From: Bacteroidota bacterium
GTDB taxonomy: Bacteria; Bacteroidota; Bacteroidia; 2-12-FULL-35-15
Length of the DNA: 64,000 nucleotides
Reading direction: 5' to 3'
NCBI GenBank assembly: GCA_040389865.1
Contig: JAZJZM010000009.1
Location: 5,616 to 69,615, forward strand
Shown here in pieces: positions 3,361-57,570 of the stretch. Both the position numbers and the translations under genes were made by a program. Numbering within the stretch: the stretch's first letter is position 1; the number at the start of each line of letters is the position of its first letter. A model generated the notes under the pieces. It did not search any database, had not been told where the DNA came from, and saw only the letters and a list, made by a program, of their open reading frames with translations.

Positions 3361-3560
3361 TACGTTAGGGATTCCTTCGGCAGGCTCAGGATAAATTCCG
3401 CGTAAATCCCCGCCCGAACGAATTAGTTCATTCGGGCAGGCTTTTCTTTTTAAAAAAGATTGAAGCCCTTCGGTGAAGCCTGTCCTGAGCGTAGTCGAAG
3501 GGCTCAGGATAGACTCCAAGCCCGCCAATTCTTTTTCAAGAATTGGAACGCCCAAATGAA
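3361..3560 (+). mobile_element. MITE-like scaffold (CGTTAGGGATT...GGAACGCCCAAAT) carrying three inserted hairpin repeats
   Basis: Aligns by eye with 14890-15041 and with the reverse complement of 57468-57570; extra segments at about 3374-3397, 3410-3441 and 3466-3517. Confidence 0.75.
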
Positions 3561-3684
3561 AATAATAATCTTCTTCAAAAAATGTGCTTGAAAAACAATC
3601 AAAGTGTACCTTTATTGCATTAATTGATGATAAAAAGATCATCAGGCATATTATTTGAGTATATATTGACATAAAAATAAAATT

Positions 3685-4971
3685 ATGCAAACTATTGACA
3701 GAAAAAAATCACCGGCATTTAACACGGTAGAAAAAATAGAAATCATAAAAGCGAGTGAACAACGCTTACGAAATAATATCCCTGTTTATTCTATTAATGC
3801 AGGTACTCAGGAGCTTATTAAAATTGAATTTTTATTTTCTGCAGGCATGTATCAGCAGACGATTCCTTTACAGGCAACAACAGTAAATACCATGCTGGAA
3901 GAGGGCACATCAAAATTAAATGCCGCTCAAATTGCCGACAGAGTTGATTATTATGGGGCTTTTCTTGAAACCGGTGTTTCACAGGACAGTGCATCGGTAG
4001 TTTTATATACACTCAACAAACATTTAAAATCCACTTTGCCCGTAGTAGAGCAGATCATCAAAGATTCCGTTTTTCCTCAGCATGAGCTGGATACGCATAT
4101 CAGAAATAAAAAGCAAACCTTTTTGGTGAACAACCAAAAGGTCGCCAATGTTGCCCGTAAACGCTTTACTGAACTGCTCTTTGGAGAAAAACATCCGTAT
4201 GGAATAAATGTAAAAGAAACAGATTTTGATGTCATCAATCGTTCACATTTGAATGATTTTTATTCAACTTTTTATCGTTCAAATAATTGTAAAATTATTA
4301 TGGCAGGTAAAGTGGATGATGGTGTGTTGACTTTATTAGATAACCACTTTGGAGGCAACGATTGGAATTCAATTAGTGATCTAAGCACAAAGAGCCTGCC
4401 AATCGTTACATCGGTAGACCATGAACAGTTGATCCTAAAGGAAGATGCCATGCAATCGGCCATTCGCATAGGTAAAGTATTGTTCAATAAAACACATCCT
4501 GACTTTCAATCGCTACAGGTATTAAATACTCTTTTTGGAGGTTATTTCGGCTCCCGTTTAATGTCGAATATCCGTGAAGATAAAGGCTATACCTATGGTA
4601 TTGGTTCCGGTATAGCATCATTGCAAAATTCCGGTTATTTCTTTATCTCTACTGAAGTTGGAGTGGATGTTTGTAAAGATGCAATTAAGGAAATATATTT
4701 TGAAATGAATCGTTTACGTGAAGAGTTGGTCCCTGAAGATGAGCTGCAATTAGTCAAAAATTACCTTTTAGGTATGTTTTTAAGGAGTGTAGATGGTCCT
4801 TTTGCAATGGCAGAGCGATTTAAAGGCATCATGGAATACAATTTAGGCTATGATTATTTTGATAGATACATTGCAACCATTAAGGCGATTTCTGCATCTC
4901 AACTAAGAGATCTGGCAAATACCTATTTCGATAAAAATAGTATGATAGAGTTGGTTGTAGGTAAAAAATAA
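3685..4971 (+). CDS. M16 (insulinase/pitrilysin) family protein, non-catalytic subunit type
   Basis: LFGGYFGSRLMSNIREDKGYTYG motif; no HxxEH in the N-terminal domain. Confidence 0.85.
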   Translation: MQTIDRKKSPAFNTVEKIEIIKASEQRLRNNIPVYSINAGTQELIKIEFLFSAGMYQQTIPLQATTVNTMLEEGTSKLNAAQIADRVDYYGAFLETGVSQDSASVVLYTLNKHLKSTLPVVEQIIKDSVFPQHELDTHIRNKKQTFLVNNQKVANVARKRFTELLFGEKHPYGINVKETDFDVINRSHLNDFYSTFYRSNNCKIIMAGKVDDGVLTLLDNHFGGNDWNSISDLSTKSLPIVTSVDHEQLILKEDAMQSAIRIGKVLFNKTHPDFQSLQVLNTLFGGYFGSRLMSNIREDKGYTYGIGSGIASLQNSGYFFISTEVGVDVCKDAIKEIYFEMNRLREELVPEDELQLVKNYLLGMFLRSVDGPFAMAERFKGIMEYNLGYDYFDRYIATIKAISASQLRDLANTYFDKNSMIELVVGKK

Positions 4972-4974
4972 AGG

Positions 4975-5173
4975 ACCCAACCGGCCTCCCCGAAGGGGAG
5001 GAGGATATTTCGGGAGTGGTAGAATTTAAAATCGATTCGAAAATGCAATCTAATATTAAAAATATAGTTCGTCAAAAGTCCTCCCTTCGGGAGGGTTGGG
5101 TGGGCTTTTTTTTAGTTGCATTTCTCTTTTTCTCCCCTTTTTTTATTCCCTCCCCTTCAGGGGCGCCGGGTGG
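4975..5173. repeat. CCTCCCCTTCGGGGAGG-type REPs: inverted pair (4975-5002 / 5078-5104) plus a third copy (5148-5173)
   Basis: acccaaccggcctccccgaaggggagga; tcctcccttcgggagggttgggtggg; ccctccccttcaggggcgccgggtgg. Confidence 0.75.
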
Positions 5174-8724: not shown

Positions 8725-11631
8725 ATGAAAATTAAAAAATTACACCTTGTATTATTTGCTGTTACATTTAGCTTTCAAATTTTGACTTTCAAAAGCCAGG
8801 CGCAGGTTTGTTTTGCCCCTGCAACCAATTTTCAAATAGGTAGTAATCCTAATTCTGGCCTAAGTGCAGATTTTAATGGAGACGGCCATGCCGACTTGGC
8901 AACAGTTCATTCCAATGATAGCACTGTGGCTATATATTTAGGCGATGGATCTGGTAACTTTGGGTCTGCTACTAATTTTTCAGCAGATATGTTTACTAAT
9001 TCGATCACTAGTGCTGATTTTAATGGAGATACCTATGTGGATCTGGCAACGGCAAATTATTTTTCCAACACTATATCGGTTTTGTTGGGCAATGGCGCAG
9101 GGGCCTTTGGCTCTGCAACAAATTTTAATTTAGAAGGTGCTTATTCAATTATCAGTGCAGATTTTAATGGAGATAATAATCCTGATTTGGCAATCACTCA
9201 AAATGATTCAAGCAAAATAGTGATTTTAATTGGCAATGGCGCAGGCAACTTTGGTGCAGCAACAAGCTTTGCGGTAGCAGGACGGCCCAGTTCACTTATT
9301 AGCGCTGATTTTAATGGCGATAATAAAGCCGACTTAGCCACCGCTAATGGCTATAATAACAACGTATCAATATTACTTGGTGACGGCTTAGGAAGCTTTG
9401 GAGTATCTACAAACGTTAGCGTTGGGACTTCACCTCTTTCGGTTACTAATGCAGATTTCAACACCGATGGCAATGTAGATTTAGCTATAGCTAATTGGGA
9501 TTCAGACAATGTATCCATATTGCTGGGCAATGGCTTAGGTAGTTTTGGTACTGCCATTAACTTTAATCTAGACTCAATGCCAAGATCAATTATTAGTGCT
9601 GATTTTAACGGGGATGGTAAAGCCGATCTGGCGAGTGCGAATGAGGGGCCGAACAATGTATCCGTATTATTAGGTGATGGTTTAGGAAGTTTTGGCTCTG
9701 CCTCTTACTTTAATACAGGTTATGGTACATATTCACTTATCAATGCTGATTTTAATGAGGATTTGAAAATCGATTTGATTGCAGTAAATAAATATTCAAA
9801 TAATATATCCATATTATTAAATAGCCTTCCACCAGCTTTAGTAATTACCAGTCCTGCTGCTGTATGTTTCCCTAACACTATAAATATCACTGGAGGCGCT
9901 GTTACCGCAGGAAGTACCGGAGGTGGCACATTAAGCTACTGGACAAACGTTGGAGCAACAAGTCCCTTGCTACTTCCTAATGCAGTTACTTTAGGTACAT
10001 ATTATATAAAAGCTACGAAAATAGGTGGATGCACGGATCTTAAGCCGGTAATAGCAACAGTAAATCCAAAACCCATTTCAAATGCCGGAATTGATCTGAC
10101 AATTTGTTCAGGAAGTACTGACAGTATAGGTATTGAAGGTGTAGCAGGAAATACGTATTCATGGAATTCTTCAATAGGAATATCTGATTCTACAGTTTCT
10201 GCCCCCGATATCACAACTATTAATACCACCAGCACCCCAATTGTAACAACGTATACATTAATCGCAACTACCACATTAACTGGTTGCCAATCGACAGATA
10301 ATATAATAGTAACCGTAAATCCTCAACCTGTATTGGTGATTACAAACCCCGCTGCTGTTTGTTTCCCAGGCACTGTAGATGTAAAGGCAGGAGCTGTAAC
10401 AGCGGGAAGTACAGGAGGCGGTACCTTAAGTTACTGGACAAATCCAGCAGCAACCGATTCATTATCATCACCAAGTACCGTTGGAACAAGTGGTACAAAT
10501 TATATTATGGTTTCAGCTATTGGAGGTTGTAAAGATACAAACGCTATAAATATCACTGTTAACCCTCAGCCTACAGCCACTTTCACAACAGTTGATGAAA
10601 GTTCCAGCTTATATTGTGATGGTTCAATTGTGGCTGATCTAACAGGTGGTACTGGAACAATTCAACCGGAATGGCTTGATAACGCTCAAACTGTTTTAGC
10701 TGCAATTGACTCGATTGGTGCGCTTTGTGCAGGGGATTATACCTTGAATTTAATTGACGCGAATCTTTGTACCAATACGTATACACAAGCTGTTCTGGCA
10801 GGACCACTTCCTCCAAGCCCTCCTATTTGCCTTATAACGGTAGATATCACAAATACTCACAATATAGTTGTTTGGGAAAAAACAAATTTGGATATGACAT
10901 CCATTGATAGCTTTGTGGTTTACCGCGAAGTAACTACTAACAACTACCAGTCAATAGGTACCGTTTCGAAAGATTCCCTTAGCACTTTTGATGACTTTGC
11001 TGCTAACCCGGCAACTACAGGATATCGCTATAAATTAAAAAGTAAAAATACACATGGTGTATTATCTCTTTTCTGTGATTACCACAACACCATTTATCTG
11101 AATAATAATGGTGCTAATTTTAACTGGACTCCTTACCAGGTGCAGAATAACACAACTCCGGTATCCACCTATAATGTATATAGAGATGATAATTCAACAG
11201 GCAACTTTATATTGATTGGCAATACAACAGGTAACCAATTTGGATATACGGATATACAATTTGCGTCTTTCCCTGACGCAAGCTATTATGTGGAAGCAGT
11301 AATGGTAGCAGGTGCTTGCCAACCAACACGAACTGACTTTACGGCTTCTCGTTCCAATGTAAAACACTTTGGAACTGCAGGAGTTCAGGAATTAAACGCT
11401 CTTACTGAAGTTAACATTTACCCGAACCCGGCTGGGAATACACTAAACATAACAGGTATTACCGGTAAAACTACTCTTTTATTATATGATGTGGTTGGTA
11501 AATTAGTATTGGAAAAAGAAGTAGAGAATAACACGATACTAAATACAAGCCATTTGGTGGACGGGATCTATACCCTTTTAACGGAGAGTAAAATGGGCAG
11601 ATCGTTTAATAAAGTGGTGATAAGCAGGTAG
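8725..11631 (+). CDS. FG-GAP/VCBS repeat (7 blades) protein with T9SS type A CTD
   Basis: Seven (S/N)ADFN(G/T/E)D..xDL motifs, two PAAVCFP...GSTGGGTLSYWTN modules, C-terminal IYPNPAGNTLNI...GIYTL...KVVI. Confidence 0.9.
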   Translation: MKIKKLHLVLFAVTFSFQILTFKSQAQVCFAPATNFQIGSNPNSGLSADFNGDGHADLATVHSNDSTVAIYLGDGSGNFGSATNFSADMFTNSITSADFNGDTYVDLATANYFSNTISVLLGNGAGAFGSATNFNLEGAYSIISADFNGDNNPDLAITQNDSSKIVILIGNGAGNFGAATSFAVAGRPSSLISADFNGDNKADLATANGYNNNVSILLGDGLGSFGVSTNVSVGTSPLSVTNADFNTDGNVDLAIANWDSDNVSILLGNGLGSFGTAINFNLDSMPRSIISADFNGDGKADLASANEGPNNVSVLLGDGLGSFGSASYFNTGYGTYSLINADFNEDLKIDLIAVNKYSNNISILLNSLPPALVITSPAAVCFPNTINITGGAVTAGSTGGGTLSYWTNVGATSPLLLPNAVTLGTYYIKATKIGGCTDLKPVIATVNPKPISNAGIDLTICSGSTDSIGIEGVAGNTYSWNSSIGISDSTVSAPDITTINTTSTPIVTTYTLIATTTLTGCQSTDNIIVTVNPQPVLVITNPAAVCFPGTVDVKAGAVTAGSTGGGTLSYWTNPAATDSLSSPSTVGTSGTNYIMVSAIGGCKDTNAINITVNPQPTATFTTVDESSSLYCDGSIVADLTGGTGTIQPEWLDNAQTVLAAIDSIGALCAGDYTLNLIDANLCTNTYTQAVLAGPLPPSPPICLITVDITNTHNIVVWEKTNLDMTSIDSFVVYREVTTNNYQSIGTVSKDSLSTFDDFAANPATTGYRYKLKSKNTHGVLSLFCDYHNTIYLNNNGANFNWTPYQVQNNTTPVSTYNVYRDDNSTGNFILIGNTTGNQFGYTDIQFASFPDASYYVEAVMVAGACQPTRTDFTASRSNVKHFGTAGVQELNALTEVNIYPNPAGNTLNITGITGKTTLLLYDVVGKLVLEKEVENNTILNTSHLVDGIYTLLTESKMGRSFNKVVISR

Positions 11632-11726
11632 TGAAAAATATTGTTCCGGCTTTTAGCTTGTCTTTTTAAAGAATTCTAAACAGATAATTTAGAAAATCTG
11701 AAATTAAAACCATTAATAAATTAAAT

Positions 11727-14105
11727 ATGAAACTTAAAAATCTACCTCTTTTATTATTTACCCTTGCTACTTTTAATTTTCAATTTTTGACTCACAAGAC
11801 TCAGGCTCAGGTGTGTTTTACTTCTGCAACTAATTTCACAACTGGCACCCACCCTACTTCAGTCATTAGTGCCGATTTTAACGGAGATGGTAAAGCCGAT
11901 TTAGCTGTAGCTAGTGAATCAAACAATGTATCTGTATTATTGGGTGATGGTTTAGGCAACTTTGGCACTTTTACCAACTTTGCAGTTGGTAACGCTCCTT
12001 ATTCAATTATTAGTGCTGATTTTAATGGAGATAGTAAAGTAGATTTGGCAACAACTAATCTAGGTTCAAATAATATATCTATTTTGCTTGGCGATGGACT
12101 AGGAAATTTTAGTCCAGCCACTAATTTTGCGGTAGGTACCAGTCCTTATTCGCTTATTAGTGCTGATTTTAACGGAGACAACAAAGCTGATTTGGCAATA
12201 GCTAATTCGGGCTCAAACAATGTATCAGTATTATTGGGTGATGGCTTAGGTAGTTTTGGTGCTGCTACAAACTTTGTGGTAGACAATTATCCTGAATCAA
12301 TTGTTAGTGTCGATTTTAACGGAGATACCAAAGCTGATTTAGCGGTAGTTAACCAAACCTCAAATAATGTATCAATATTATTAGGAAATGGATCAGGTAG
12401 CTTTGGGCCTGCCACCAACTTTTCTGTAGGTTCTACCCCTACTTCAATCATTAGTTCTGATTTTAATGGTGATAGTAAAGCTGATTTAGCTGTTTCTAAT
12501 TATTTAAATGTATCGGTATTGCTGGGCGATGGGACAGGCGGTTTCGGCAGTGTCAGTAATTTTGCTTTGGCTAATAGTCCTAATTCAGTTAATAGCGCTG
12601 ATTATAATGGAGATGGAAAATCGGATTTGGCTATGGTTAGTGCTGGTGGTTCAGGAAACATATCAGTATTGTTGGGTAACGGAACAGGAGGTTTTGGATC
12701 CGCAGCCAACTTTACAGCAGGTTCCGATGCTTGTTCAATCATCAGTGGAAATTTTAACGGAGACAACAAACCCGATTTTGTGGTGGCTAATTATATGCCA
12801 ACAAAGGTATCGATTTTATTAAATAATTCTTTTATAGTCACAGCTCAAGCAACAGCAACAACCGTTTGCGTGGGAGCAACAGTAACACTTACTGGAGGTG
12901 GTGCCACTTCTTATACATGGACTGGGGGAGCTATTGACACTGTTGCATTTACATGCCCTTCATCTACTACTACATATACCGTAACAGGAACAACAGCAGG
13001 ATGTTCTGATACGGTAACAATAACTATTACAGTAAATCCAGCACCTACCGCCACTTTTACAATACATGATGAAAGTTCTACTTTATATTGTGATGGTTCA
13101 ATTGTTGCCGATCTAACAGGTGGGACAGGAACTATTTTACCAGAATGGCTTGATAACACTCAAACTGTTATAGCCAATATTGATTCTATTGGTGCACTTT
13201 GTTCAGGTTCTTATACTTTGAATATAATTGATGCTAACCTTTGTACCAACACTTATACACAAGCTATTCTGGCAGGACCAATTCCCCCAACACCGCCTAT
13301 TTGCCTTATAACGGTAGATATCACAAATACTCATAATATCGTTGTTTGGGAAAAAACAAATCTGGATTTGACAGCTATTGATAGCTTTGTAGTATATCGT
13401 GAAATATCCACCAATATCTACCAACCTATAGGCGCAGTGCCGAAAGATTCTATTAGCACATTTGATGACTTTGCTGCAAACCCCGCAACAACAGGATACC
13501 GTTATAAATTAAAAAGTAAAAACACACATGGTGTAACATCGCTTTTCTGTGAATACCACAATACTATTTACCTCACCAACACAGGCGCTAATTTTAGTTG
13601 GACTCCTTACCAGATAGAAAACAACACCACACCAGTATCAAATTATTATATTTATAGAGATGATAATTCAACAGGCAACTTTATATTGATTGGCAATACA
13701 ACAGGTAACCAATTTGGATATACGGATATACAATTTGCTTCTTTCCCGGATGCAAGTTATTATGTGGAGGCAGTAATGGTAGCAGGAGGTTGCCAACCAA
13801 CACGTACTGATTTTACTGCTTCGCGTTCCAACGTAAAACACTTTGGAACTGCCGGAGTTCAGGAATTAAACACTCATACTGTAGTTAATATTTACCCGAA
13901 CCCAGCTGGTAATACGTTAAACATTACCGGTATCACTGGTAAAACCACTCTTTTATTATATGATGTTGTTGGTAAATTAGTATTGGAAAAAGAAGTAGAG
14001 AATAACACGATACTAAATACAAGCCATTTGGTGGATGGGATCTATACCCTTTTAACAGAAAGTAAAATGGGCAGATCATTTAATAAAGTGGTGATAAGCA
14101 GGTAG
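11727..14105 (+). CDS. FG-GAP/VCBS repeat (7 blades) protein with T9SS type A CTD; tandem paralog of 8725-11631
   Basis: Seven DFNGD-type repeats; C-terminal ~350 aa nearly identical to the upstream paralog. Confidence 0.9.
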   Translation: MKLKNLPLLLFTLATFNFQFLTHKTQAQVCFTSATNFTTGTHPTSVISADFNGDGKADLAVASESNNVSVLLGDGLGNFGTFTNFAVGNAPYSIISADFNGDSKVDLATTNLGSNNISILLGDGLGNFSPATNFAVGTSPYSLISADFNGDNKADLAIANSGSNNVSVLLGDGLGSFGAATNFVVDNYPESIVSVDFNGDTKADLAVVNQTSNNVSILLGNGSGSFGPATNFSVGSTPTSIISSDFNGDSKADLAVSNYLNVSVLLGDGTGGFGSVSNFALANSPNSVNSADYNGDGKSDLAMVSAGGSGNISVLLGNGTGGFGSAANFTAGSDACSIISGNFNGDNKPDFVVANYMPTKVSILLNNSFIVTAQATATTVCVGATVTLTGGGATSYTWTGGAIDTVAFTCPSSTTTYTVTGTTAGCSDTVTITITVNPAPTATFTIHDESSTLYCDGSIVADLTGGTGTILPEWLDNTQTVIANIDSIGALCSGSYTLNIIDANLCTNTYTQAILAGPIPPTPPICLITVDITNTHNIVVWEKTNLDLTAIDSFVVYREISTNIYQPIGAVPKDSISTFDDFAANPATTGYRYKLKSKNTHGVTSLFCEYHNTIYLTNTGANFSWTPYQIENNTTPVSNYYIYRDDNSTGNFILIGNTTGNQFGYTDIQFASFPDASYYVEAVMVAGGCQPTRTDFTASRSNVKHFGTAGVQELNTHTVVNIYPNPAGNTLNITGITGKTTLLLYDVVGKLVLEKEVENNTILNTSHLVDGIYTLLTESKMGRSFNKVVISR

Positions 14106-14135
14106 TGAAAAAATAGATTTTTAAAAAAATTTTAC

Positions 14136-14166
14136 AAAAAAAGTTCGCTAAATGCGAACTTTTTTT
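14136..14166. promoter_or_regulatory. Inverted repeat just upstream of the higB -7 element (candidate TA operator and/or terminator)
   Basis: AAAAAAAGTTCGC-taaat-GCGAACTTTTTTT. Confidence 0.55.
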
Positions 14167-14168
14167 TA

Positions 14169-14176
14169 TACCTTTG
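14169..14176 (+). promoter_or_regulatory. Bacteroidota sigma-A -7 element for higBA
   Basis: TACCTTTG matches TAnnTTTG, 8 nt before the ATG. Confidence 0.6.
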
Positions 14177-14184
14177 TCTTACAA

Positions 14185-14478
14185 ATGAATATAGTTGCAT
14201 TTAGAACATTAAGGGCCTTTTATGAAAGGCATGAAGATTGTGAAACACAACTAAAAACCTGGTATAAAAAGACGGTATCAGCAAACTGGAAATCACCCAA
14301 TGAAATTAAAATAGATTATCCATCCGCCAGTATTATTGAAGATAACAGAGTAGTTTTTAATATAAAAGGCAACGAATATAGATTAATAGTAAAATTTAAT
14401 TACAAATATGGATGGGCATGGATACGGTTTATTGGCACACATGCTGAATATGATAAAATCAATGCAAAAACAATTTAA
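14185..14478 (+). CDS. higB: Type II TA toxin HigB (mRNA interferase)
   Basis: RVVFNIKGNEYRLIV...IRFIGTHAEYDKI is the characteristic HigB signature; toxin precedes antitoxin. Confidence 0.88.
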   Translation: MNIVAFRTLRAFYERHEDCETQLKTWYKKTVSANWKSPNEIKIDYPSASIIEDNRVVFNIKGNEYRLIVKFNYKYGWAWIRFIGTHAEYDKINAKTI

Positions 14479-14489
14479 AAAATAATAAC

Positions 14490-14843
14490 ATGAAATTTGC
14501 TCCTATTAAAAACGAAAAAGACTATCAAAAGGCCTTACAGGAGCTTGAGAAAGTTTTTGATGCTGAGCTAAATTCTCCGGAAGGAGATAAAGGCCAGGTT
14601 CTTGTTCTTTTGATAGAAGATTATGAAAAGAAACATTATCCTATTGGTGCACCTGATCCAATTGAAGCTATAAAGTCAACGATGGAAGAAAAGGGGCTTA
14701 GCAATAAAGATGTTGTTCCTTATTTTGGCAGCAAAAGCCTTGTTTCCCAGGTTTTATCAAAACAAAGAAATCTCTCCTTAAAAATGATCAGAGCATTGCA
14801 TGTAGGCCTAAGATTGCCCTATGAAGTTTTACTTGCGGAATAA
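14490..14843 (+). CDS. higA: Antitoxin HigA (HTH)
   Basis: IKNEKDYQKAL...LIEDYEKKHYPI..PDPIEAIK followed by a C-terminal HTH ending LSLKMIRALH. Confidence 0.88.
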   Translation: MKFAPIKNEKDYQKALQELEKVFDAELNSPEGDKGQVLVLLIEDYEKKHYPIGAPDPIEAIKSTMEEKGLSNKDVVPYFGSKSLVSQVLSKQRNLSLKMIRALHVGLRLPYEVLLAE

Positions 14844-14889
14844 AATATTTGTCTCTTAAAAATGCAGCGATGACTCTTTCATCCTAAAT

Positions 14890-15041
14890 GCTGCGTTAGG
14901 GATTCCTTCGACAAAAGCTCAGGATAAATTCCACGTAAATCCCCGCCCGAACGACTGATGTCTTTCAGTCGGGCAGGCTTTTCTGTTTAGATTGATTGCA
15001 AAGCCCGTCCCTTTCTTTTTCAGAAAGGGAACGCCCCAAAT
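14890..15041 (+). mobile_element. MITE-like scaffold with two inserted hairpin repeats
   Basis: gctgcgttagggatt[ccttcgacaaaagctcaggataaatt]ccacgtaaatcc[ccgcccgaacg...gtcgggcaggc]ttttct...aagcccgtccctttc...gaaagggaacgccccaaat. Confidence 0.75.
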
Positions 15042-15092
15042 AACCTGCCTTTAAATGAATTATTTTGAAGGATTGAAGGATCGTAATCAGTA

Positions 15093-16571
15093 CTATTCCA
15101 GAACAGTAACATGCCCTTTATATTCCACGCTGTTCAGATCCAGCACATAAAAATAGGTTCCACACTCCACTTTTAAACCCGAAGTAGTTCTACCGTCCCA
15201 TTTATTATTGATACTTGAGGACGCAAATACAAGGATTCCCCAGCGATCATAGATATTTACATTGAAGTTGGTTAAATTTTCTCCACTTAAATTTATTTTA
15301 AACACATCGTTAATACCATCTCCATTGGGACTGAATACATTTGGTATTTCAATGGCAGGACAGGCAATAACAGTATTGGTTTGCTGAGCGGAAGGTGTTG
15401 CACACGCTACATTTGATGTAAGAATAACGCTGATGGTTTCTCCATTCATAAATGCGCCTGAAGACGTATAAATTGGAGAATTTGTCCCCACATTAATACT
15501 ATTTCTCTGCCATTGATAAACAGGCAAGGTCCCACCATTGGATGGAGAAGCGGTAAATGTAACGGCAGAACTTATACATAATGCAGTAGTTGCAGCAGTG
15601 GTGATACTTACGCTTGGCACAACAACTGAATTAATAGTGATATTCACCCCATTATCAATACCTGTAGCAGCGGGTGCGGAGCTAATCACTCTAAAAAGAT
15701 AACCTGGTGCTGTTATTGATCCGCAAGGGATGACACATGAAATAGTGCCTGCATTGGATGTACTTACCAATGTACCAATAGTTACAGGGGCTGTAAAATT
15801 ACCTGCTGAATCGGAAAGTTGCACAGTATATGTATTTCCGGCAGTAATAGTTCCGGTACTTGAAAAAGGTATATCTACAGTGTCGCAAGCGCAGTAGGAG
15901 CTTAACGTTAAAGCACCTGTTGTAATTGTTACACAATTAATAACAGTATCAGTCTGAACTACTGATGGAGAAGCACAAGCAGCATTAGACGTTAATATTA
16001 CACTAACAATATCTCCAATATTCAATAAAGCACTTGTGGTGTAAACAGTAGAATCAATCCCCACATTTACTCCATTTATTTGCCATTGATAAATGGGTAC
16101 CGCCCCTCCATTAGTTGGTGTGGCGGTAAATATAACGGTAGTATCTGTACATATAATTCCGGATACATTGGCTGCGATACTTACAGTAGGAACAACAGAG
16201 GCATTAATTACTATGCCTGTACCATTATCAGTACCTGTAAAAGCCGGGGTTGAACTTGTTATTCTAAAGAGATAGCCTGCTCCTGCGGAAGTTCCACAAG
16301 GTAAAATACAAGAAACGGAATCAAAGTTGGATGTACTGACCAACGTACCAATAATTACGGGCGAGGCGAAACTACCTGCAGCATCTGAAAGTTCAGCAGT
16401 ATAGATATTACCTGCAATAAATACTCCAACACTTGTAAATGGTATATTTACTGTTCCGCAAGCACAGAAAGGACTTCCCGATATTGTGCCCGTAGTGATC
16501 TGAGATTGAGCATTAAATGAATAAAATGAGAGAACCAATGCACAAAGCGCAGTGATATTAATTACCCTCAT
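15093..16571 (-). CDS. Secreted protein with duplicated Ig-like module pair and T9SS type B CTD
   Basis: IEIPNVFSPNGDGINDVF...YDRWG...KWDG...GTYFYVL; two ITTG...FCAC/YCAC modules; start set at MRVINIT. Confidence 0.85.
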   Translation of the reverse strand: MRVINITALCALVLSFYSFNAQSQITTGTISGSPFCACGTVNIPFTSVGVFIAGNIYTAELSDAAGSFASPVIIGTLVSTSNFDSVSCILPCGTSAGAGYLFRITSSTPAFTGTDNGTGIVINASVVPTVSIAANVSGIICTDTTVIFTATPTNGGAVPIYQWQINGVNVGIDSTVYTTSALLNIGDIVSVILTSNAACASPSVVQTDTVINCVTITTGALTLSSYCACDTVDIPFSSTGTITAGNTYTVQLSDSAGNFTAPVTIGTLVSTSNAGTISCVIPCGSITAPGYLFRVISSAPAATGIDNGVNITINSVVVPSVSITTAATTALCISSAVTFTASPSNGGTLPVYQWQRNSINVGTNSPIYTSSGAFMNGETISVILTSNVACATPSAQQTNTVIACPAIEIPNVFSPNGDGINDVFKINLSGENLTNFNVNIYDRWGILVFASSSINNKWDGRTTSGLKVECGTYFYVLDLNSVEYKGHVTVLE

Positions 16572-16596
16572 TTTAATAAAAGAATAACACATTCAA

Positions 16597-16672
16597 TCTG
16601 ATAATTTGAAAATTTGTTAATGTGAAATTGCACTGATCAGAAAATAAAATAATTGGTCATCACATTTTCAAA
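16597..16672. repeat. Degenerate octamer (TTTGAAAA/TTTTCAAA) inverted-arm spacer
   Basis: aatttgaaaatttgttaatgtgaaatt ... cacattttcaaa. Confidence 0.45.
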
Positions 16673-16735
16673 AGCCTTGATCCATTGATTTTAGCTTGCT
16701 AATAATACATTCATGTGGCAAAGCAAATTTTTTAA

Positions 16736-18139: not shown

Positions 18140-18200
18140 ATTTCCTGATTTAACTCCTTTATTATTTTTATTATCTGGTGTTGTTGAAGCTAAAGCTTTC

Positions 18201-19742: not shown

Positions 19743-19745
19743 AAT

Positions 19746-19852
19746 TTAGTGATTTAGAGATTGGGTGATTTAGAGAATTCGTCATTTAATAAAATTTAGT
19801 CCTTTGAAAATTTTTCAAAATCTCCATTTTTTCAATTCTCCAATTCTCTATT
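19746..19852. repeat. Octamer inverted-arm spacer (TTAGAGAT / AATTCTCC)
   Basis: ttagtgat ttagagat tgggtgat ttagagaa ... aatctcc ... caattctc caattctc. Confidence 0.65.
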
Positions 19853-19946
19853 TTTCTACGCCCCGAAAGTAGTAAAATATTAGTTTACCAACAAAAATAT
19901 AAGAAATTTGGATTTATAAAGGAGTAAAACAACTCCTTAAGTGTTG

Positions 19947-19954
19947 TATTTTTG
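19947..19954 (+). promoter_or_regulatory. Bacteroidota -7 element
   Basis: TATTTTTG, 18 nt before the ATG at 19973. Confidence 0.5.
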
Positions 19955-19972
19955 TGCAAAAAATTAAAAAAA

Positions 19973-20647: not shown

Positions 20648-20849
20648 GTTAAAAGTTTTTAAGTCAAAAGTCAAAAAGGTATAGTTGAAAGTCAAAAGAG
20701 TGAAATCAAAAATTAAAGAAGAAAAAGGTAAGTCAAAATTCAAAAGATGGAGAACAAATTACGGCTTTTGGCTTTATCATTTTAACTTTCCTTTTTGACT
20801 TTTTTCTCTTTTAACTTTTTTCTTCTTTTGACTTAAAAACTTTTGACTT
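20646..20849. repeat. Heptamer (AAGTCAA/TTGACTT) inverted-arm spacer with 25-bp terminal inverted repeats
   Basis: 20646-20670 pairs with 20825-20849 at 24/25 positions; the remaining position is T:G. Confidence 0.85.
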
Positions 20850-20856
20850 AAATTGA

Positions 20857-20864
20857 TATCTTTG
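20857..20864 (+). promoter_or_regulatory. Bacteroidota -7 element
   Basis: TATCTTTG, 18 nt before the ATG at 20883; TTTG tetramers lie upstream within the repeat arm. Confidence 0.6.
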
Positions 20865-20882
20865 CAGCCAAATTCCACATAA

Positions 20883-26207: not shown

Positions 26208-26214
26208 AAAAGAT

Positions 26215-26363: not shown

Positions 26364-27659
26364 ATGAAAGTAGATGTATTATTAGGTCTTCAGTGGGGAG
26401 ACGAGGGGAAAGGAAAAATTGTAGATGTATTAACACCGAAATATGATATTATCGGGCGTTTTCAGGGTGGACCAAATGCCGGACATACCCTCGAGTTCAA
26501 TGGTATAAAGCACGTGCTGCATACTATACCTTCCGGTATTTTTCACGACAAAAAAATAAACGTTGTTGGTAACGGTGTAGTGATCGATCCCGTGATCTTC
26601 AAAAAAGAAATAGATGCCTTGGTAAAACTGAATGTTGATGTAAAATCAAAATTAGTGATCTCCAAACGTGCTCATTTAATTTTACCGACACACCGCCTTC
26701 TGGATGCTGCTTCTGAAGCAAGCAAAGGCAAAGAGAAGATTGGATCTACCCTTAAAGGTATTGGACCAACCTATATGGATAAAACAGGTCGTAACGGTTT
26801 GCGTGTTGGTGATATCGATAGCCCTGATTTTAAAAATAAATACAATGCCTTGGTTGAAAAACACAAGCAATTATTAAATTTCTACAATTACCAATACAAC
26901 CTTACAGAGTTGGAGCCAGCTTTTTTTGAGGGTATTGAAGTTTTAAAAAGTTTAAAACGAGTTGAGAGTGAGCATTATATTGATGAAGCATTAAAAAATA
27001 ACAAAGCGATATTGGCTGAAGGTGCTCAAGGTTCCTTATTAGATATTGATTTTGGTTCATATCCATTTGTAACATCATCAAACACTATATGTGCAGGTGC
27101 TTGTACAGGTTTAGGAATTGCTCCTAATAAAATTGGAAATGTAATTGGTATTTTTAAAGCATACTGCACACGTGTTGGCAGTGGGCCGTTCCCAACCGAG
27201 CTAAATGATGAAGTAGGTGAGCAAATAAGAAAAACAGGTAATGAATTTGGTTCTACCACCGGTCGTCCGAGACGCACAGGATGGTTAGATCTACCTGCAC
27301 TTAAATATGCTATTATGATCAATGGCGTTACTGAATTGATGATGATGAAAGCGGATATATTAAGTGGTTTTGAAACTATAAAAGTATGTACCCATTATAA
27401 TTATCAAGGCGAAAAAATTAATTACCTGCCTTATGATTATTCTCCCGAATTACTTTCACCTGTTTACAAAGAATTAAAAGGATGGAATCAGGATCTGACA
27501 GGACTTAACAGCCCTGACCAAATGCCTGAAGAATTAAATGAATACATTTCATTTATTGAGCGTGAAGCCGGTGTGCCAATTTCAATTGTTTCTGTTGGCC
27601 CTGACCGCACTCAAACATTGATGCGCAAAAAAAACAGTCCTACTCCAGCCCTACCATAG
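26364..27659 (+). CDS. purA: Adenylosuccinate synthetase
   Basis: GLQWGDEGKGK, QGGPNAGHT, EGAQG, EFGSTTGRPRRTGW motifs. Confidence 0.98.
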   Translation: MKVDVLLGLQWGDEGKGKIVDVLTPKYDIIGRFQGGPNAGHTLEFNGIKHVLHTIPSGIFHDKKINVVGNGVVIDPVIFKKEIDALVKLNVDVKSKLVISKRAHLILPTHRLLDAASEASKGKEKIGSTLKGIGPTYMDKTGRNGLRVGDIDSPDFKNKYNALVEKHKQLLNFYNYQYNLTELEPAFFEGIEVLKSLKRVESEHYIDEALKNNKAILAEGAQGSLLDIDFGSYPFVTSSNTICAGACTGLGIAPNKIGNVIGIFKAYCTRVGSGPFPTELNDEVGEQIRKTGNEFGSTTGRPRRTGWLDLPALKYAIMINGVTELMMMKADILSGFETIKVCTHYNYQGEKINYLPYDYSPELLSPVYKELKGWNQDLTGLNSPDQMPEELNEYISFIEREAGVPISIVSVGPDRTQTLMRKKNSPTPALP

Positions 27660-27822
27660 ACACCTCTCCCTTAATCCCTCTCCACAGGAGAGGGGCTAAA
27701 CGTAAAAAAGAAAAGGTTATATGATGAGGCTAATTTATAAAGTTAATTGCAAGCAACTCTCCTTCCCCCGCCCCTCCCGTGGAGAGAGGATTAAGGAGAG
27801 CGCTATTCTTTGGAGAGGGTTA
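27636..27822. repeat. Cluster of CCCCTCTCC..GGAGAGGGG-type REPs between purA and ostA-like gene
   Basis: cctctcccttaatccctctccacaggagaggggct; ctccttcccccgcccctcccgtggagagaggattaaggagag; tggagagggtta. Confidence 0.7.
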
Positions 27823-33564: not shown

Positions 33565-33643
33565 TTTAAATATTACGTTTAGATTGACATTTTTTTATCA
33601 TTTTTAAAGTAGACCAGACAGGTTTTGAACTGTAATCCCGCCT

Positions 33644-33707
33644 CTTTCTACCTCACCCCTTAATCCCCTCTCCAATTGGAGAGGGGATTAAGGGGTGAGG
33701 TAGAAAG
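33644..33707. repeat. Perfect 64-bp palindrome with no loop (head-to-head REP doublet)
   Basis: Checked base by base: 33644-33675 is the exact reverse complement of 33676-33707. Confidence 0.9.
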
Positions 33708-33732
33708 GGAAACGCCCAAATTAAGACCCAAA

Positions 33733-36930: not shown

Positions 36931-36936
36931 TTTTTA

Positions 36937-44034: not shown

Positions 44035-44478
44035 ATGAGCATTTGGTTTAAACCTTATACAGCTGCCGACATTCAAAGGATGCTGAAAAACAATATGTGT
44101 GAAACCATTGGTATTGAAATTACCGAACTCACACCCGATTCTGTTAAAGGCAAAATGCCCGTGGATCACCGCACAGTGCAGCCTATGAATATATTGCACG
44201 GTGGTGCATCCGTTGCTTTAGCCGAAACACTTGGCAGTATCGGTTCCCATTTAATTGTAGATCCCACTATTTATGCCTGTGTAGGATTGGATATAAATGC
44301 CAATCATTTACGCCCTGCAGTTGGTGGATTTGTTTATGCCGAGGCAAAACCAATTCATATTGGTAAAAAAACACATGTATGGAGTATTGAAATAAAAAAT
44401 GAGCAAGGTAAATTGGTTTGTATAAGCAGGCTTACAATGGCTGTAATTGAAATACCAGTTGGAAAGTTGAAAGTTTAA
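44035..44478 (+). CDS. Hotdog-fold thioesterase (PaaI/MenI-like)
   Basis: QPMNILHGGASVALAETLGS motif. Confidence 0.88.
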   Translation: MSIWFKPYTAADIQRMLKNNMCETIGIEITELTPDSVKGKMPVDHRTVQPMNILHGGASVALAETLGSIGSHLIVDPTIYACVGLDINANHLRPAVGGFVYAEAKPIHIGKKTHVWSIEIKNEQGKLVCISRLTMAVIEIPVGKLKV

Positions 44479-44524
44479 AGTTAAGTACTCAACTTTAAAC
44501 TTTGAACTTTAAACTTTAAACTAA
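44456..44524. repeat. AAAGTT/AACTTT heptamer inverted-arm spacer whose left arm encodes the thioesterase C-terminus
   Basis: ggaaagttgaaagtttaaagtt-aagtactc-aactttaaactttgaactttaaactttaaact. Confidence 0.8.
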
Positions 44525-44536
44525 AAAATAAAAATT

Positions 44537-52305: not shown

Positions 52306-52914
52306 TTACGCATTCTTTTTAAATAATTTATTGGCATCTCCAATAAAATTTAACAATTCTTTTTTCCCTTCCTTTTTTTCAGCTGAGGTATAAAAGCACT
52401 GAGGCAATTCGTCCCAATGTTTGCCCATTTCTTCTTTATAACCTTTTAAATTATCACTTATCTTCTTTTTTGAAAGCTTATCGGTTTTTGTAAAAACCAT
52501 CACAAAAGGAATACCATGCTCACCCAGCCAATCCATAAAATCCAAATCCACTTTTTGCTGAGGAATGCGTGAATCCAGCAGTACCATCACACACATTAAA
52601 TTGGGGCGGGTAAGAATATATTGCTCAATAAATTTATTCCATTTAGTTTTTAAATCCTGTGATACCTTAGCATAGCCATAACCAGGCAAATCCACTAAAT
52701 ACCAATTTGCATTAATTATAAAATGATTGATAAGCTGGGTTTTACCCGGTTTGGATGATGTTTTTGCCATATCCTTCCTATCACATAGCATATTGATAAG
52801 TGATGATTTACCAACATTTGACCGGCCTATAAAAGCATATTCCGGCATGGTTGGCGCAGGGCATTTCGATACATCCGTGTTACTTATAACAAATTGTGCT
52901 GTTTTAATTTCCAT
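52306..52914 (-). CDS. engB: Ribosome biogenesis GTPase YihA/YsxC
   Basis: GRSNVGKSS, KPGKTQ, DLPGYG, TKTDK. Confidence 0.95.
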   Translation of the reverse strand: MEIKTAQFVISNTDVSKCPAPTMPEYAFIGRSNVGKSSLINMLCDRKDMAKTSSKPGKTQLINHFIINANWYLVDLPGYGYAKVSQDLKTKWNKFIEQYILTRPNLMCVMVLLDSRIPQQKVDLDFMDWLGEHGIPFVMVFTKTDKLSKKKISDNLKGYKEEMGKHWDELPQCFYTSAEKKEGKKELLNFIGDANKLFKKNA

Positions 52915-52929
52915 TATTTTAGTTTTAAT

Positions 52930-53058
52930 TTGGAAAGTTTAAAGTCCAAAGTTTCCTTCAAACTTCCTATTTTCCATATTGATTATCATTTTTTTTCATT
53001 CACTTATTTCTATTCGCCATTTTAACTTTTCAACTTTAAACTTTCTAACTTTAAACTG
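52930..53058. repeat. AAAGTT/AACTTT inverted-arm spacer
   Basis: ggaaagtttaaagtccaaagttt ... aacttttcaactttaaactttctaactttaaact. Confidence 0.75.
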
Positions 53059-53071
53059 TCCGAATTAAATT

Positions 53072-54001
53072 TTATAACTTCTTATATGTAGCAACGTGCC
53101 GTTCTTTTTTAGAATCATAAATGTCTGCGATCTTCACCATGATAGCAGTTTCTTCTACCTCTCCAAAATGCGAATTCATAGCAGTTCCGAAAGTTTTCAT
53201 TGTGGCTGACAAATTCATGTACGCGTTTACAAGAGGAGGAATGTGTTCACCAAGGTCACGTACATTTTGATTTAAGATACGGTGACCATCCTTATAATTT
53301 AAACCATCAATGGATCTTAAAAATTCGGAAACATCTGTTTTAATAAGTAACGGTTCAATTGGAACAACTAAATTTTCTTTATCAGGAAAATAATAATTCA
53401 TGAACGCCAGGATCATATCGCGCGCATGAACATTAAAATGAGTGTACATAGTAACCTTGCCGTAGAAATAATGAATATCAGGATTGTCTACAACTATTGC
53501 TCCTAAACCATCCCATAAATTATCCAATGAAAATAAACCTTTGCGGTTATCAATAGAAGGCTGATATTTAGGTTGAACAAATGAACGTCCCAATTCAATC
53601 ACATAAGGTAAATAATCACTTACAAATTTATCAGAAAATTTAAATAGCTCTGTTGTGGCAAGCTGAACAATCCCATCAATACCTACCGGAGCATCTTTAC
53701 ATTTAATAAAACGATAACCGCTAACAATTTCCTTTTCTTCGGGACTCCAAACGATCAATTGTTTGTAAGGCGCATCTGCAGTGTCATATTCATCAATATC
53801 AATACTTTTACCTGTACCACCGCCAGAAGCACGAAAAGTAAGTTCACGCAAACGACCGATCTCAACCATTATATTGGGTGAATCATGATGTGTGATAATG
53901 TAAATTTCATTATCCCCGTTATTTGTAACACGTATAAATTTATCAGGGGTAAGTTCTGCTTCTAATATATCTTTGGAAATCGGTTCTATTACTGCTTGCA
54001 T
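53072..54001 (-). CDS. OlsB/GlsB-like GNAT N-acyltransferase (often annotated hemolysin)
   Basis: EIGRLRELTFR..GGGTG, ELGRSFVQP.YQ, IPPLVNAY; paired with a PlsC-type acyltransferase. Confidence 0.8.
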   Translation of the reverse strand: MQAVIEPISKDILEAELTPDKFIRVTNNGDNEIYIITHHDSPNIMVEIGRLRELTFRASGGGTGKSIDIDEYDTADAPYKQLIVWSPEEKEIVSGYRFIKCKDAPVGIDGIVQLATTELFKFSDKFVSDYLPYVIELGRSFVQPKYQPSIDNRKGLFSLDNLWDGLGAIVVDNPDIHYFYGKVTMYTHFNVHARDMILAFMNYYFPDKENLVVPIEPLLIKTDVSEFLRSIDGLNYKDGHRILNQNVRDLGEHIPPLVNAYMNLSATMKTFGTAMNSHFGEVEETAIMVKIADIYDSKKERHVATYKKL

Positions 54002-54009: not shown

Positions 54010-54085
54010 GTTTAAAGTTTGAAAGTTATTTAGTTTAAAGTTGAGTTCTGTATTACACACTTTCAAATTTCAACTTTGAACTTTC
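54010..54085. repeat. AAAGTT/AACTTT inverted-arm spacer; one arm encodes the acyltransferase C-terminus
   Basis: gtttaaagtttgaaagttatttagtttaaagttg ... ttcaaatttcaactttgaactttc. Confidence 0.7.
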
Positions 54086-55925: not shown

Positions 55926-55932
55926 CTATACT

Positions 55933-56058
55933 AATTAGAGATTTGTTGATTTAGAGATTTGCTAATTTACTGATTTATTTAATTCTACAACTCTCCATTT
56001 CTCTATTTCGCGAATTTCTTAATTCTCCAACTCTGTAAATCTCCACTTCTCCAATTAA
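55933..56058. repeat. Octamer inverted-arm spacer (TTAGAGAT / ATTTCTCT-AATTCTCC)
   Basis: ttagagatttgttgatttagagatttg ... ctctccatttctct...aattctcc...aatctccacttctcc. Confidence 0.7.
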
Positions 56059-57396
56059 TTATCCTTTATAAAAAAGCCATTTACCCAACTCTTTCCAGGT
56101 AACCTTTTTGCCATACATTAATATGCCGGTACGATAGATACGAGCGGCAAGCCAGGTAGTAAAAATAAAACCAAGTACCAGTAAACCCATTGAAAGCGCC
56201 AACTCCCAGGCAGGAACTCCAAAAGGCATTCTCACCATCATGATCACAGGTGAGGTTAATGGTATTATTGAAAACCAAAAGGCCATAGGGCTTTCCGGGT
56301 CTTGAATCACATTTTGAGCGATAATAAATGAGAAAATAAGAGGTATCGTTATCGGCAACATAAATTGCTGGGTATCAGCTTCACTATCCACAGCAGAGCC
56401 CACTGCAGCAAATAGTGCACTATACAAAAGATAACCGGCCAAAAAATAAAATAAGAAACATAAAAATATAGTTACCATATCAACGGACTTAAAATCATTC
56501 CAAACTTCTGTAACAACATTAGGCCGGTCCATTTTTTTCATTTCAGAATACTTTAGATCAGCGCCTACTTTTATTATTTGCTCCTTTTGCTGCACCTGCT
56601 TTACGTCAATATTTTTCAAAATGGTAACTGAAGCAACACTGTATAATGTCATTGTTAAAATCACCCATAATAAAAACTGTGTTAAACCAACCAATGCAAC
56701 TCCAAGTATCTTACCCATCATCAGCTGAAATGGTTTTACTGAAGAAAGTATCACTTCCACAATACGGCTTGTTTTCTCCTCCATTACACCTCGCATTACC
56801 TGCACACCGTAAAGAAAAATGAACATATAGATCAATACGCCCCCTCCTATCCCGATTGCCATAAACAATCCGGTATTTGTTTTTTTGCTCTTACCCGTTT
56901 CTTCTAATTTTTCAGTGATAACGGTGAACCTGGAATTTACTTCCGCATCTTTTATTGTATTCAGATCTACCTTGTTTTTGGCCAAAATAACATTGTACAT
57001 CATTTTACTGATCGTAGAACCGATATATTCTTCAGTAGCAATACCCAATTGTTTTTTATAAAATAATTTTATTGCTTTTCCGCCTTCTAAAATATTATCG
57101 GGTATAAATAATATTGCATCATAGCTAGACTCATAAAAGCCTTCCTGTGCCTTTTCAAAGCTTATATCAGGATAATCAAAATCAATAAATTCTTTTTGTG
57201 GAATCAGATCTTTAAATAAATAACTCTCATCGATCACCTGAATCTCCTGCTTTTCTGTTTTTTGTGTTGCCATCCAGATAGGCACGATCATCAATCCGGC
57301 CATCAAAACAGGGCCAAGAATAGTCATAATGATGAATGATTTTTTCTTAACCCTTGTTAAGTATTCACGTTTTATTATGAGAGAGATTTTATTCAT
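56059..57396 (-). CDS. ABC-2 type permease (NatB-like)
   Basis: IIKREYLTRVKKKSF, VMEEKTSRIVEVILSSV.PFQLMMGKILG, PLTSPVIMMVR. Confidence 0.9.
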   Translation of the reverse strand: MNKISLIIKREYLTRVKKKSFIIMTILGPVLMAGLMIVPIWMATQKTEKQEIQVIDESYLFKDLIPQKEFIDFDYPDISFEKAQEGFYESSYDAILFIPDNILEGGKAIKLFYKKQLGIATEEYIGSTISKMMYNVILAKNKVDLNTIKDAEVNSRFTVITEKLEETGKSKKTNTGLFMAIGIGGGVLIYMFIFLYGVQVMRGVMEEKTSRIVEVILSSVKPFQLMMGKILGVALVGLTQFLLWVILTMTLYSVASVTILKNIDVKQVQQKEQIIKVGADLKYSEMKKMDRPNVVTEVWNDFKSVDMVTIFLCFLFYFLAGYLLYSALFAAVGSAVDSEADTQQFMLPITIPLIFSFIIAQNVIQDPESPMAFWFSIIPLTSPVIMMVRMPFGVPAWELALSMGLLVLGFIFTTWLAARIYRTGILMYGKKVTWKELGKWLFYKG

Positions 57397-57467
57397 TAAC
57401 TGAAGTTTCGGGATTATTTTCTGATATAATTGATCTATTACTTTCTTCGGAGAAGAAGTATTATTTT

Positions 57468-57570
57468 ATTCATTTGGGCGTTCCCTTTCTTAAATAAGAA
57501 AGGGCCGGGCTTTTCACTTCAATCTTTTCTTAAACAAGAAAAGGATTTACGTTTCAATCCCTAACGCAGC
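57468..57570 (-). mobile_element. Empty ~103-bp MITE-like scaffold
   Basis: Minus strand gctgcgttagggattgaaacgtaaatcc...aagattgaagtgaaaagcccggccctttc...gaaagggaacgcccaaatgaa. Confidence 0.75.

Follow-up and report, generated by a model that had tools for sequence, protein, structure and literature searches.

We analysed a 64,000-nucleotide stretch (hereafter the window) of contig JAZJZM010000009.1 from a Bacteroidota bacterium, in which an original prediction, made from the DNA letters alone, had described a repeat nested within itself and present in three states. We identify the repeated scaffold as Flavo-1, an established Rfam family whose full form is approximately 100 nt in length. Flavo-1 has a conserved branched fold with loop slots that are either empty or filled by short cassettes. 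These cassettes occur in many combinations, and they are present in or absent from copies at the same chromosomal position of related genomes, while the remainder of the copy and its flanks are unchanged. We consider it probable that Flavo-1 is a structured interspersed repeat in which cassettes enter the loop slots rarely and then spread from scaffold to scaffold by templated copying.

The identity of the scaffold was established from an Rfam scan of the window at gathering thresholds (42 bits for Flavo-1, RF01705). Copy C is a full-length match, scoring 56.6 bits over the whole 76-position model (57575-57499). Copies A and B did not match any Rfam model even at E ≤ 10, and they escape the Flavo-1 model because of their cassettes. 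Stretches sampled from related genomes and metagenome-assembled genomes (MAGs), labelled here with L-numbers, contain bare orthologues of both copies, which score 55.1 bits (L251, orthologue of A) and 53.5 bits (L113, orthologue of B). Across the orthologous pairs described below, the model finds all of the bare copies and none of the filled ones. The bare copies thus match the entire model at 53-57 bits, and they come from the same host phylum, Bacteroidota. The Rfam model comprises the long hairpin only, to which the unit seen here adds a closing helix and a second, 3' hairpin. Copy C reads, in order, GCTGCGTTAGGGATT-GAAA-CGTAAATCC-TTTTCTTGTTTAAGAAAA-GATTGAAGT-GAA-AAGCCCG-[hairpin]-AACGCCCAAATGAA. 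Flavo-1 was described as an RNA motif by Weinberg et al. (2010, PMC2864571), has been held in Rfam as a function-unknown small RNA (sRNA) since 2010, and is ranked by a review among the most abundant Rfam sRNA families.

The three copies and their insert junctions lie where the original prediction had placed them (Table 1), and its scaffold unit of about 103 bp is correctly located, with the qualification that one hairpin does not span the whole unit. The window also has a degenerate fourth copy (D), recognized from weak nhmmer matches on both sides of a palindrome whose arms are 100% complementary. Within the 64-kb window the insert motifs are confined to these copies and are far above chance: CCGCCCGAACG was matched twice where 0.12 matches were expected, and the inner 23-mer of copy A once where 0.00 were expected. 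We also observed that copies A and C have approximately 25 more bases in common past AACGCCC (3554-3590 and, on the minus strand, 57475-57440), and that these 3' extensions enter 11-codon open reading frames (ORFs) at the ATG of AAATGAA (MKIIIFFKKCA and MNKIILLLRRK). In other genomes, a subset of copies has ATGAAAGnTTTTAGACAAATTATTTTTATTT after the element and CTCTTTCA before it; some Flavo-1 copies may be part of a longer unit.

Table 1 Coordinates of Flavo-1 copies, cassettes and transposase-related features in the window
Feature	Position	Strand	Description
Copy C	57469..57570	-	Bare Flavo-1, GCTGCGTTAGGG to AACGCCCAAATGAA, every slot empty; nhmmer E = 3e-28; Y-shaped fold
Copy B	14890..15041	+	Flavo-1 filled at site 1 (F1) and site 2 (F2); apical region partly degraded
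F1, site 1 of copy B	14905..14932	+	CCTTCGACAAAAGCTCAGGATAAATTCC, after GGGATT; replaces the GNA triplet of the 5'-strand internal loop
F2 hairpin, site 2 of copy B	14943..14978	+	CCGCCCGAACG...CGGGCAGGC, after GTAAATCC; fold z -2.7
Copy A	3361..3560	+	Flavo-1 with cassettes at sites 1, 2 and 3; site 3 cassette nested
F1, site 1 of copy A	3374..3399	+	CCTTCGGCAGGCTCAGGATAAATTCC; slot empty (GCAG) in L249
F2 hairpin, site 2 of copy A	3410..3441	+	Fold z -4.4
Composite, site 3 of copy A	3467..3517	+	F1 (CCTTCG...GCTCAGGATAGACTCC) broken by an inverted arm of the same superfamily; after GATTGAAGC
Inner segment of copy A	3478..3500	+	GCCTGTCCTGAGCGTAGTCGAAG, reverse complement of the F1-like unit CCTTCGACTACGCTCAGGACAGGC
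Copy D	33576..33723 (approx.)	+	Degenerate Flavo-1; 3' hairpin CTCTTTCT...AGAAAGGG AAACGCCC with F3 in its loop
F3 in copy D	33650..33701		52-nt core ACCTCACCCCTTAATCCCCTCTCCAA/TTGGAGAGGGGATTAAGGGGTGAGGT within a perfect 64-nt palindrome (33644-33707); fold z -14.7
Two partial free-standing F3-family repeats	27655..27815 (~27655-27700, ~27765-27815)		Outside any scaffold
RAYT-like Y1 (HUH) transposase gene	733..1263	+	Pfam Y1_Tnp, 8.9e-6; HIH motif; C-terminal YLYSS
REP hairpins of the RAYT-like gene	669..1385		GGCGCGAGTGtcccCACTCGTGCC at 669-692; GGCACGAGTG.../GGCACGGGTGtaaaaCACCCGCGCC at 1301-1385

Copy C folds as a Y, in which a 5-bp closing helix (GCGUU/AACGC) surrounds the long interrupted hairpin and the short second hairpin. 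The consensus of an alignment of 81 distinct bare copies, on which all the fold statistics are based, is the same Y. It contains 26 pairs, 11 of them with compensatory changes, and at one covarying pair the copies have GC in 51 cases and AU in 30, and the pair is never broken. The paired positions were compatible with pairing in 97.5% of alignment cells, in comparison to 90.1% in shuffled alignments (none of 500 reached the observed value) and to 43-58% when the partners were slid; compensatory cells numbered 195 against 61 expected. This covariation indicates that the fold is under selection. Many unpaired nucleotides are invariant among the bare copies, and all cassette positions fall at unpaired columns of the consensus fold.

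Three families of cassette occupy the slots. F1 is a 27-nt sequence (CCTTCGNC-N2-4-GCTCAGGATAAAYTCC) which does not fold on its own (z of +0.2 to +0.35), and it substitutes for a GNA triplet in the central internal loop, on the 5' strand at site 1 or on the 3' strand at site 3. The covarying base pair that flanks the F1 slot is retained, and the empty slots are always canonical GNA. F2 is a GC-rich hairpin of 32-36 nt with two stem variants, located in the bulge that precedes the apical stem (site 2). All eight occurrences in the sampled loci are at site 2, with none outside the scaffold, and five of the eight are accompanied by another cassette. F3 is a palindrome of about 50 nt (ACCTCACCCC..CCTCTCC-N4-GGAGAGG..GGGGTGAGGT) that occupies the 3' hairpin loop (site 4) and also exists free-standing; the arrangement of copy D recurs in at least nine loci (L030, L047, L055, L056, L059, L082, L086, L087 and L099). 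Finally, the apical stem has a "long" form, in which the apical loop of the short stem carries a CCGC..GCGG mini-hairpin, in effect a fifth slot. The original prediction had taken both inserts of copy B to be hairpins, and this holds for F2 but not for F1. It had also proposed that distinct families of repetitive extragenic palindromic (REP) sequences each target one position, a proposal contradicted by the occurrence of F1 at both sites 1 and 3 and by the restriction of F2 to the scaffold. The third insert of copy A is real and nested as described, and it belongs to the same family as the first insert rather than to a separate one: the nesting is genuine, with an F1-family sequence inside an F1-family sequence inside Flavo-1. 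On folding, the partner of the inner arm is either the enclosing F1 (its 3' half) or the F1 of site 1. A candidate origin of this arm as a fresh inverted copy of the site 1 cassette of A was rejected, as the spacer and tail differ.

The slots are filled independently. Among 123 parsed copies, 92 are bare at sites 1-4, 9 are filled at site 3 only, 8 at site 1 only, 7 at site 4 only and 7 are mixed, so that 31 carry loop cassettes; site 1 is empty in 113 copies located with exact anchors and filled in 10. All eight combinations of sites 1-3 exist, counting L034 and L117 for site 2 alone, in agreement with the predicted fixed positions that vary independently. F1 sequences group by site and not by genome, forming site-specific lineages common to several species. 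The spacer of F1 is rich in purines at site 1 and mostly rich in pyrimidines at site 3; the tail is AAATTCC in 12 of 13 site 1 copies (AAATTCT in L110) and AAACTCC in 10 of 14 site 3 copies. One and the same 28-mer occupies site 1 in three MAGs at non-orthologous loci, the sampled orthologues of which are bare. As a separate observation on F3, the nested palindromes of one orthologous pair (L055:1340-1410 and L086:2010-2080) have diverged far beyond their flanks, and both are still palindromic (ACCTCAACC/GGTTGAGGT versus TCTCCGCCC/GGGTGGAGA); concerted evolution of the arms, or exchange of the palindrome for another one of the family, would account for this.

When flanks were compared between MAGs, approximately 30 pairs of copies proved orthologous, at a flank identity of 85-96%. 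In 27 pairs the two members were both parseable, the state of L055 being corrected by hand. Five pairs are discordant at site 1, three at site 2 and five at site 3, with no pair filled in both members at any of the three sites, and eight are discordant in apical type. The short and long apical forms swap in six orthologous pairs. In the pair L079 and L038, whose flanks are 95.7% identical, the sole difference is GCA in one copy and the cassette in the other. Rare features may be retained across such a change: L052 and L091 have the same rare apical hairpin despite a cassette difference, and L062 and L046 share a rare 3' hairpin and differ at sites 2 and 3. L113 is syntenic with window positions 9838-20866; where the window has copy B, it has a bare Flavo-1 of the long apical form.

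The locus of copy A gives the direction of change. Ranked by identity of the adjacent UbiD protein to that of the window, L253 and L254 (89%) have no element; L250 (95%) has a different palindromic repeat (L250:4343-4623, GTCATCCCGA...GGGATC...GATCCC...TCGGGATGAC); L251 (95%) has a bare Flavo-1, sharing with copy A its rare 3' hairpin and a near-identical downstream flank over about 170 nt; L249 (98%) is empty at site 1, where the contig ends; and the window itself (100%) has three cassettes and two apical-hairpin substitutions. By parsimony, the window lineage appears to have gained the cassettes of A recently. The repeat of L250 belongs to the superfamily that hosts F1 in metagenomes (see below), and thus the same intergenic site is occupied by two unrelated repeats. 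L001 and L249 end 144 nt and 117 nt after ubiD, respectively, so that both short-read assemblies break inside copy A. Two genes (together 14152-14843), one for a HigB-type toxin (Pfam HigB_toxin, 3e-33) and, next to it, an ORF of 117 amino acids, lie between a terminator-like hairpin and copy B; the syntenic L113 has neither.

These comparisons bear on the possibility that a composite of scaffold and all inserts is ancestral and that the short copies are deletions from it, an origin which the original prediction had considered for its short copy. Deletion between short repeats is common, and filled and empty copies coexist in every sampled genome. However, bare copies are the majority (of all parsed copies at sites 1-4, and more so at site 1 alone) and match the Bacteroidota-wide Rfam consensus. 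The empty slots have the canonical GNA and an intact flanking pair, which random deletion would not restore. The outgroups at locus A are bare or without the element, only the window lineage being filled, the orthologues of both A and B are bare canonical Flavo-1, and all eight combinations exist. We therefore regard deletion from an ancestral composite as refuted.

We then considered whether Flavo-1 is better described as DNA or as RNA. A scan of species-representative genomes with the pattern CGTTAGGGATT-N2-32-CGTAAATCC returned at least 108 loci, mostly from three Bacteroidota MAGs; relatives were gathered by exact patterns, and the copy numbers per genome and the cassette frequencies are accordingly rough. 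An ORF of at least 100 codons is overlapped by just 2 of 109 copies. Orientation relative to the two neighboring genes is unbiased (31 same/same, 26 opposite/opposite, 20 divergent and 19 convergent), and copies lie in mixed orientation along long contigs. Nearly all pairs of the apical stem are Watson-Crick, with no excess of G.U (14 G.T versus 9 A.C); the corresponding count for the 3' hairpin was dropped, being confounded by pairing register. The longest substring common to a copy's own two flanks averages 3.68 nt, compared to 3.75 nt for shuffled partners, and there is thus no target-site duplication. The only candidate terminal inverted repeat is the 5-bp helix GCGTT/AACGC, with weak similarity past it. 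Among viral contigs, the scaffold pattern gave 19 matches, all of them chance matches in coding DNA. One regularity was seen in the 3' flanks (L021-L128 and window 15037-15095): where an opposite-strand gene ends just downstream, the offset from the last C of AACGCCC to the stop codon is a multiple of three in 40 of 56 copies (40:4:12 over the frames), across non-homologous genes. The phase is not seen on the 5' side, the flank is without 3-periodicity, and none of the genes runs on into the element.

The covariation and the many invariant unpaired nucleotides are what would be expected if Flavo-1 were a functional structured RNA, such as an sRNA or an element of untranslated regions, with the cassettes acting as expansion segments like those of ribosomal RNA or RNase P and defining functional subtypes. 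The restriction of cassettes to unpaired positions, the identity of F1 across species while the stems drift with compensatory changes, and the Rfam class of the family are consistent with this. Against it stand the dozens or more copies per genome without orientation bias relative to genes, and the stems without an excess of G.U over A.C. In the transcriptome of F. psychrophilum, Flavo-1 matches are sense or antisense to transcribed regions, and many lie outside them (PMC9723704). Furthermore, cassette state looks uncorrelated between orthologous copies, which is hard to fit to a locus-specific function. We judge an RNA role as the explanation of the cassettes to be unlikely. Because of the copy number, the unbiased orientation, the lack of wobble excess and of duplication, and the published transcriptome, Flavo-1 fits better as a high-copy, intergenic, orientation-independent structured DNA repeat of an uncultured Bacteroidota clade, resembling REP and ERIC (enterobacterial repetitive intergenic consensus) elements than as an sRNA gene, despite its typing as sRNA in Rfam.

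As to how cassettes come to differ between copies, each would have entered its slot rarely. Spread among the dispersed scaffolds would follow by gene conversion or by replication template switching at hairpins, and selection for the fold would remove whatever lands in a helix, leaving cassettes in loops only. The copying process and the role of fold selection in the loop-only occupancy are the parts that we infer. Templated copying is favored because F1 replaces three nucleotides and both states are always canonical, because there is neither a target-site duplication nor a common flanking target, and because F1 clusters by site. It is also favored because adjacent modules change together, as at locus A (sites 1, 2 and 3 and the apical hairpin) and in the five accompanied F2 copies, and because a swap between the short and the long apical form amounts to replacement, which simple insertion would not produce. 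The original prediction had offered, as an alternative to its own proposal, that inserts were acquired once and spread with the scaffold. Rare acquisition followed by spread is indeed what we favor, with the difference that the spread is into copies already in place.

The proposal itself was repeated site-specific insertion, in which F1-F3 would be small mobile REP-like elements that a transposase of the HUH type, such as a REP-associated tyrosine transposase (RAYT), inserts into loops that are single-stranded in the extruded Flavo-1 hairpin and excises precisely. Gain and loss in resident copies are borne out by the orthologous pairs. The fixed positions in loops only, the independent and labile states at orthologous loci, and the occurrence of F1 and F3 outside the scaffold would all fit insertion, as would the finding that, in many metagenomes, F1 fills the corresponding loop slot of a hairpin repeat unrelated to Flavo-1, its forward orientation in 27 of 27 scaffold occurrences, and a RAYT-like gene within the window. 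The empty state is GNA, however, so that F1 is exchanged for the triplet, unlike the seamless insertion and excision of IS200/IS605-type chemistry, and the flanks differ between site 1, site 3 and the metagenome host, leaving no fixed target. F1 forms site-specific lineages that are not draws from one pool and lacks a hairpin for recognition by a RAYT, and F2 never occurs away from site 2. The mixed orientation of copies along long contigs weakly disfavors a lagging-strand bias. Of the features of a miniature inverted-repeat transposable element (MITE), the label used in the original prediction, the target-site duplication is absent.

The RAYT-like gene is single-copy, between an M1 peptidase gene and ubiD, and is present in the closest relatives (L001, L249 and L250) and absent at this position in L251-L254, a clade in which cassette variation persists; the relatives without the gene at this position that still vary in cassettes include L251 and bin067. 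Each RAYT is reported to have a REP family of its own at its flanks (Bertels & Rainey 2011, PMC3116915), and the gene of the window conforms to this. The REPs flanking the gene here (GGCRCGRGTG-N4-5-CACYCGYGCC) are unrelated to Flavo-1, F1, F2 and F3, contrary to the predicted association of RAYT genes with the insert families, and none was found away from the gene in approximately 1.5 Mb of sampled DNA. When the protein was searched by tblastn against related and metagenome loci totalling 1.46 Mb, the window's own contig was the sole match. The gene may be a candidate enzyme, plausible in principle, and nothing in the sequence ties it to the cassettes or to Flavo-1. Taken together, we consider repeated insertion improbable.

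F1 is also abundant in metagenomes. A metagenome scan with the pattern CTTCGRC-N2-4-GCTCAGGATAAA returned at least 120 loci, and among the 121 matches listed, F1 lies outside Flavo-1 in 119. Most of the listed F1 sequences sit in a different hairpin repeat, GTCAYYSYGAG-[F1]-GCGAAGRRRTCTC, whose outer stem covaries (ATCCT/AGGAT, ATTCT/AGAAT and ATTGC/GCAAT) and whose other copies hold short fillers in the F1 slot, such as a GCGAAGC mini-hairpin. No Rfam family corresponds to this repeat, and literature searches with the nucleotide strings and encoded peptide strings of the repeats returned nothing relevant. F1 itself is in essence the reverse complement of one arm of the GTCAYYSYGAG family with a TAAACTCC tail, and an arm of this kind, inverted, makes up the inner segment of copy A. 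These similarities raise the doubtful but attractive idea that F1 is a cosmopolitan, loop-seeking 27-nt cassette that replaces GNA loops in unrelated hairpin repeats of many phyla, the GAA of GCGAAGC-type mini-hairpins included, and that nests in itself. If so, F1 would represent a so far undescribed kind of minimal mobile DNA module, and the "Russian doll" of copy A would be its recursive signature.

Several points weigh against spread by templated copying. No donor copy or conversion tract was demonstrated, and perfect homology to the left of site 1 extends over just 13-17 nt or so, a short tract for conversion by RecA. Templated copying does not account for how F1 first came into two Flavo-1 slots and into the equivalent slot of an unrelated hairpin repeat. 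The loci were collected with an exact-match pattern, and the sample is biased to close relatives and to loci that contain a copy. There is no clean scaffold-empty orthologous site among the sampled loci, the distant relatives without the element at locus A having flanks too diverged to set its boundaries, and therefore mobility of the scaffold itself is not shown. Finally, an RNA-level function of Flavo-1 is possible, as an independent sRNA gene would likewise show no orientation bias.

The window contains further features with no bearing on the cassettes. A DUF805 RNA motif (38167-38234, minus strand, 76.6 bits) and a thiamine pyrophosphate (TPP) riboswitch (36844-36936, minus strand, 66.8 bits) both exceed their Rfam gathering scores. 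Another class of interspersed repeat consists of intergenic runs of 7-8-nt tandem units, of the types TTCTCTAT / TTAGAGAT and AAGTTTAAAGTT / AACTTTAAACTT, located at 19738-19883, 55935-56070 and 59895-59990, and also at 25088-25253, 26192-26355, 44458-44536, 52912-53075 and 54012-54082; some of these runs are inverted pairs tens of kilobases apart. Two large paralogous genes (8800-14105) with FG-GAP repeats of 147 nt (49 amino acids) and type IX secretion sorting domains are the source of the largest direct-repeat families in the window.

Flavo-1 thus behaves as an interspersed structured DNA repeat and not as an sRNA gene, and the real unit is larger than the Rfam model. About a quarter of the parsed copies (31 of 123) bear cassettes, and those with cassettes at sites 1-3 are missed by the current model, so that the family is under-counted in annotation. 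As cassette state changes across flanks that are 85-96% identical, Flavo-1 may be a useful system for studying how scattered hairpin repeats exchange sequence by templated copying. Flavo-1 copies fragment assemblies, and their cassette state could serve as a fine-scale strain marker.

Several known systems share features with Flavo-1. The ERIC elements of enterobacteria, also called intergenic repeat units (IRU), are said to be intergenic, orientation-independent imperfect palindromes of about 100-130 bp, and they reportedly have longer variants in which internal blocks are inserted at fixed sites. Flavo-1 has no sequence relation to ERIC and differs in its four or more slots, in the occurrence of all combinations and in the switching at orthologous loci; in our literature search on ERIC, papers on the insertion variants did not come up. 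The BOX elements of Streptococcus pneumoniae are likewise composite and intergenic, with interchangeable modules and variable content, and are built of boxA-boxB(n)-boxC modules in series, whereas the modules of Flavo-1 are nested in the loops of a conserved fold. MITEs are bounded by terminal inverted repeats and duplicate their target sites, in comparison to just the 5-bp closing helix, and no duplication, of Flavo-1. Template-switch mutagenesis at quasipalindromes is a process of templated loop replacement for which microhomology reportedly suffices, in keeping with the GNA replacement and with the inverted arm of copy A. Its classical cases are said to copy the opposite arm of the same hairpin, unlike the situation here, where the donor would be another dispersed copy. 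The REP/REPIN-RAYT systems and the mosaics of bacterial interspersed mosaic elements (BIMEs) are also short extragenic hairpin-forming repeats (Nunvar 2010; Bertels & Rainey 2011, PMC3116915), from which Flavo-1 differs in not being an inverted REP doublet, F1 in not being palindromic, and F2 and F3 in being single inside the scaffold. On the best reading, Flavo-1 with its swappable cassettes joins the known mosaic intergenic repeats, alongside ERIC with its blocks, BIMEs, BOX and REPIN clusters.

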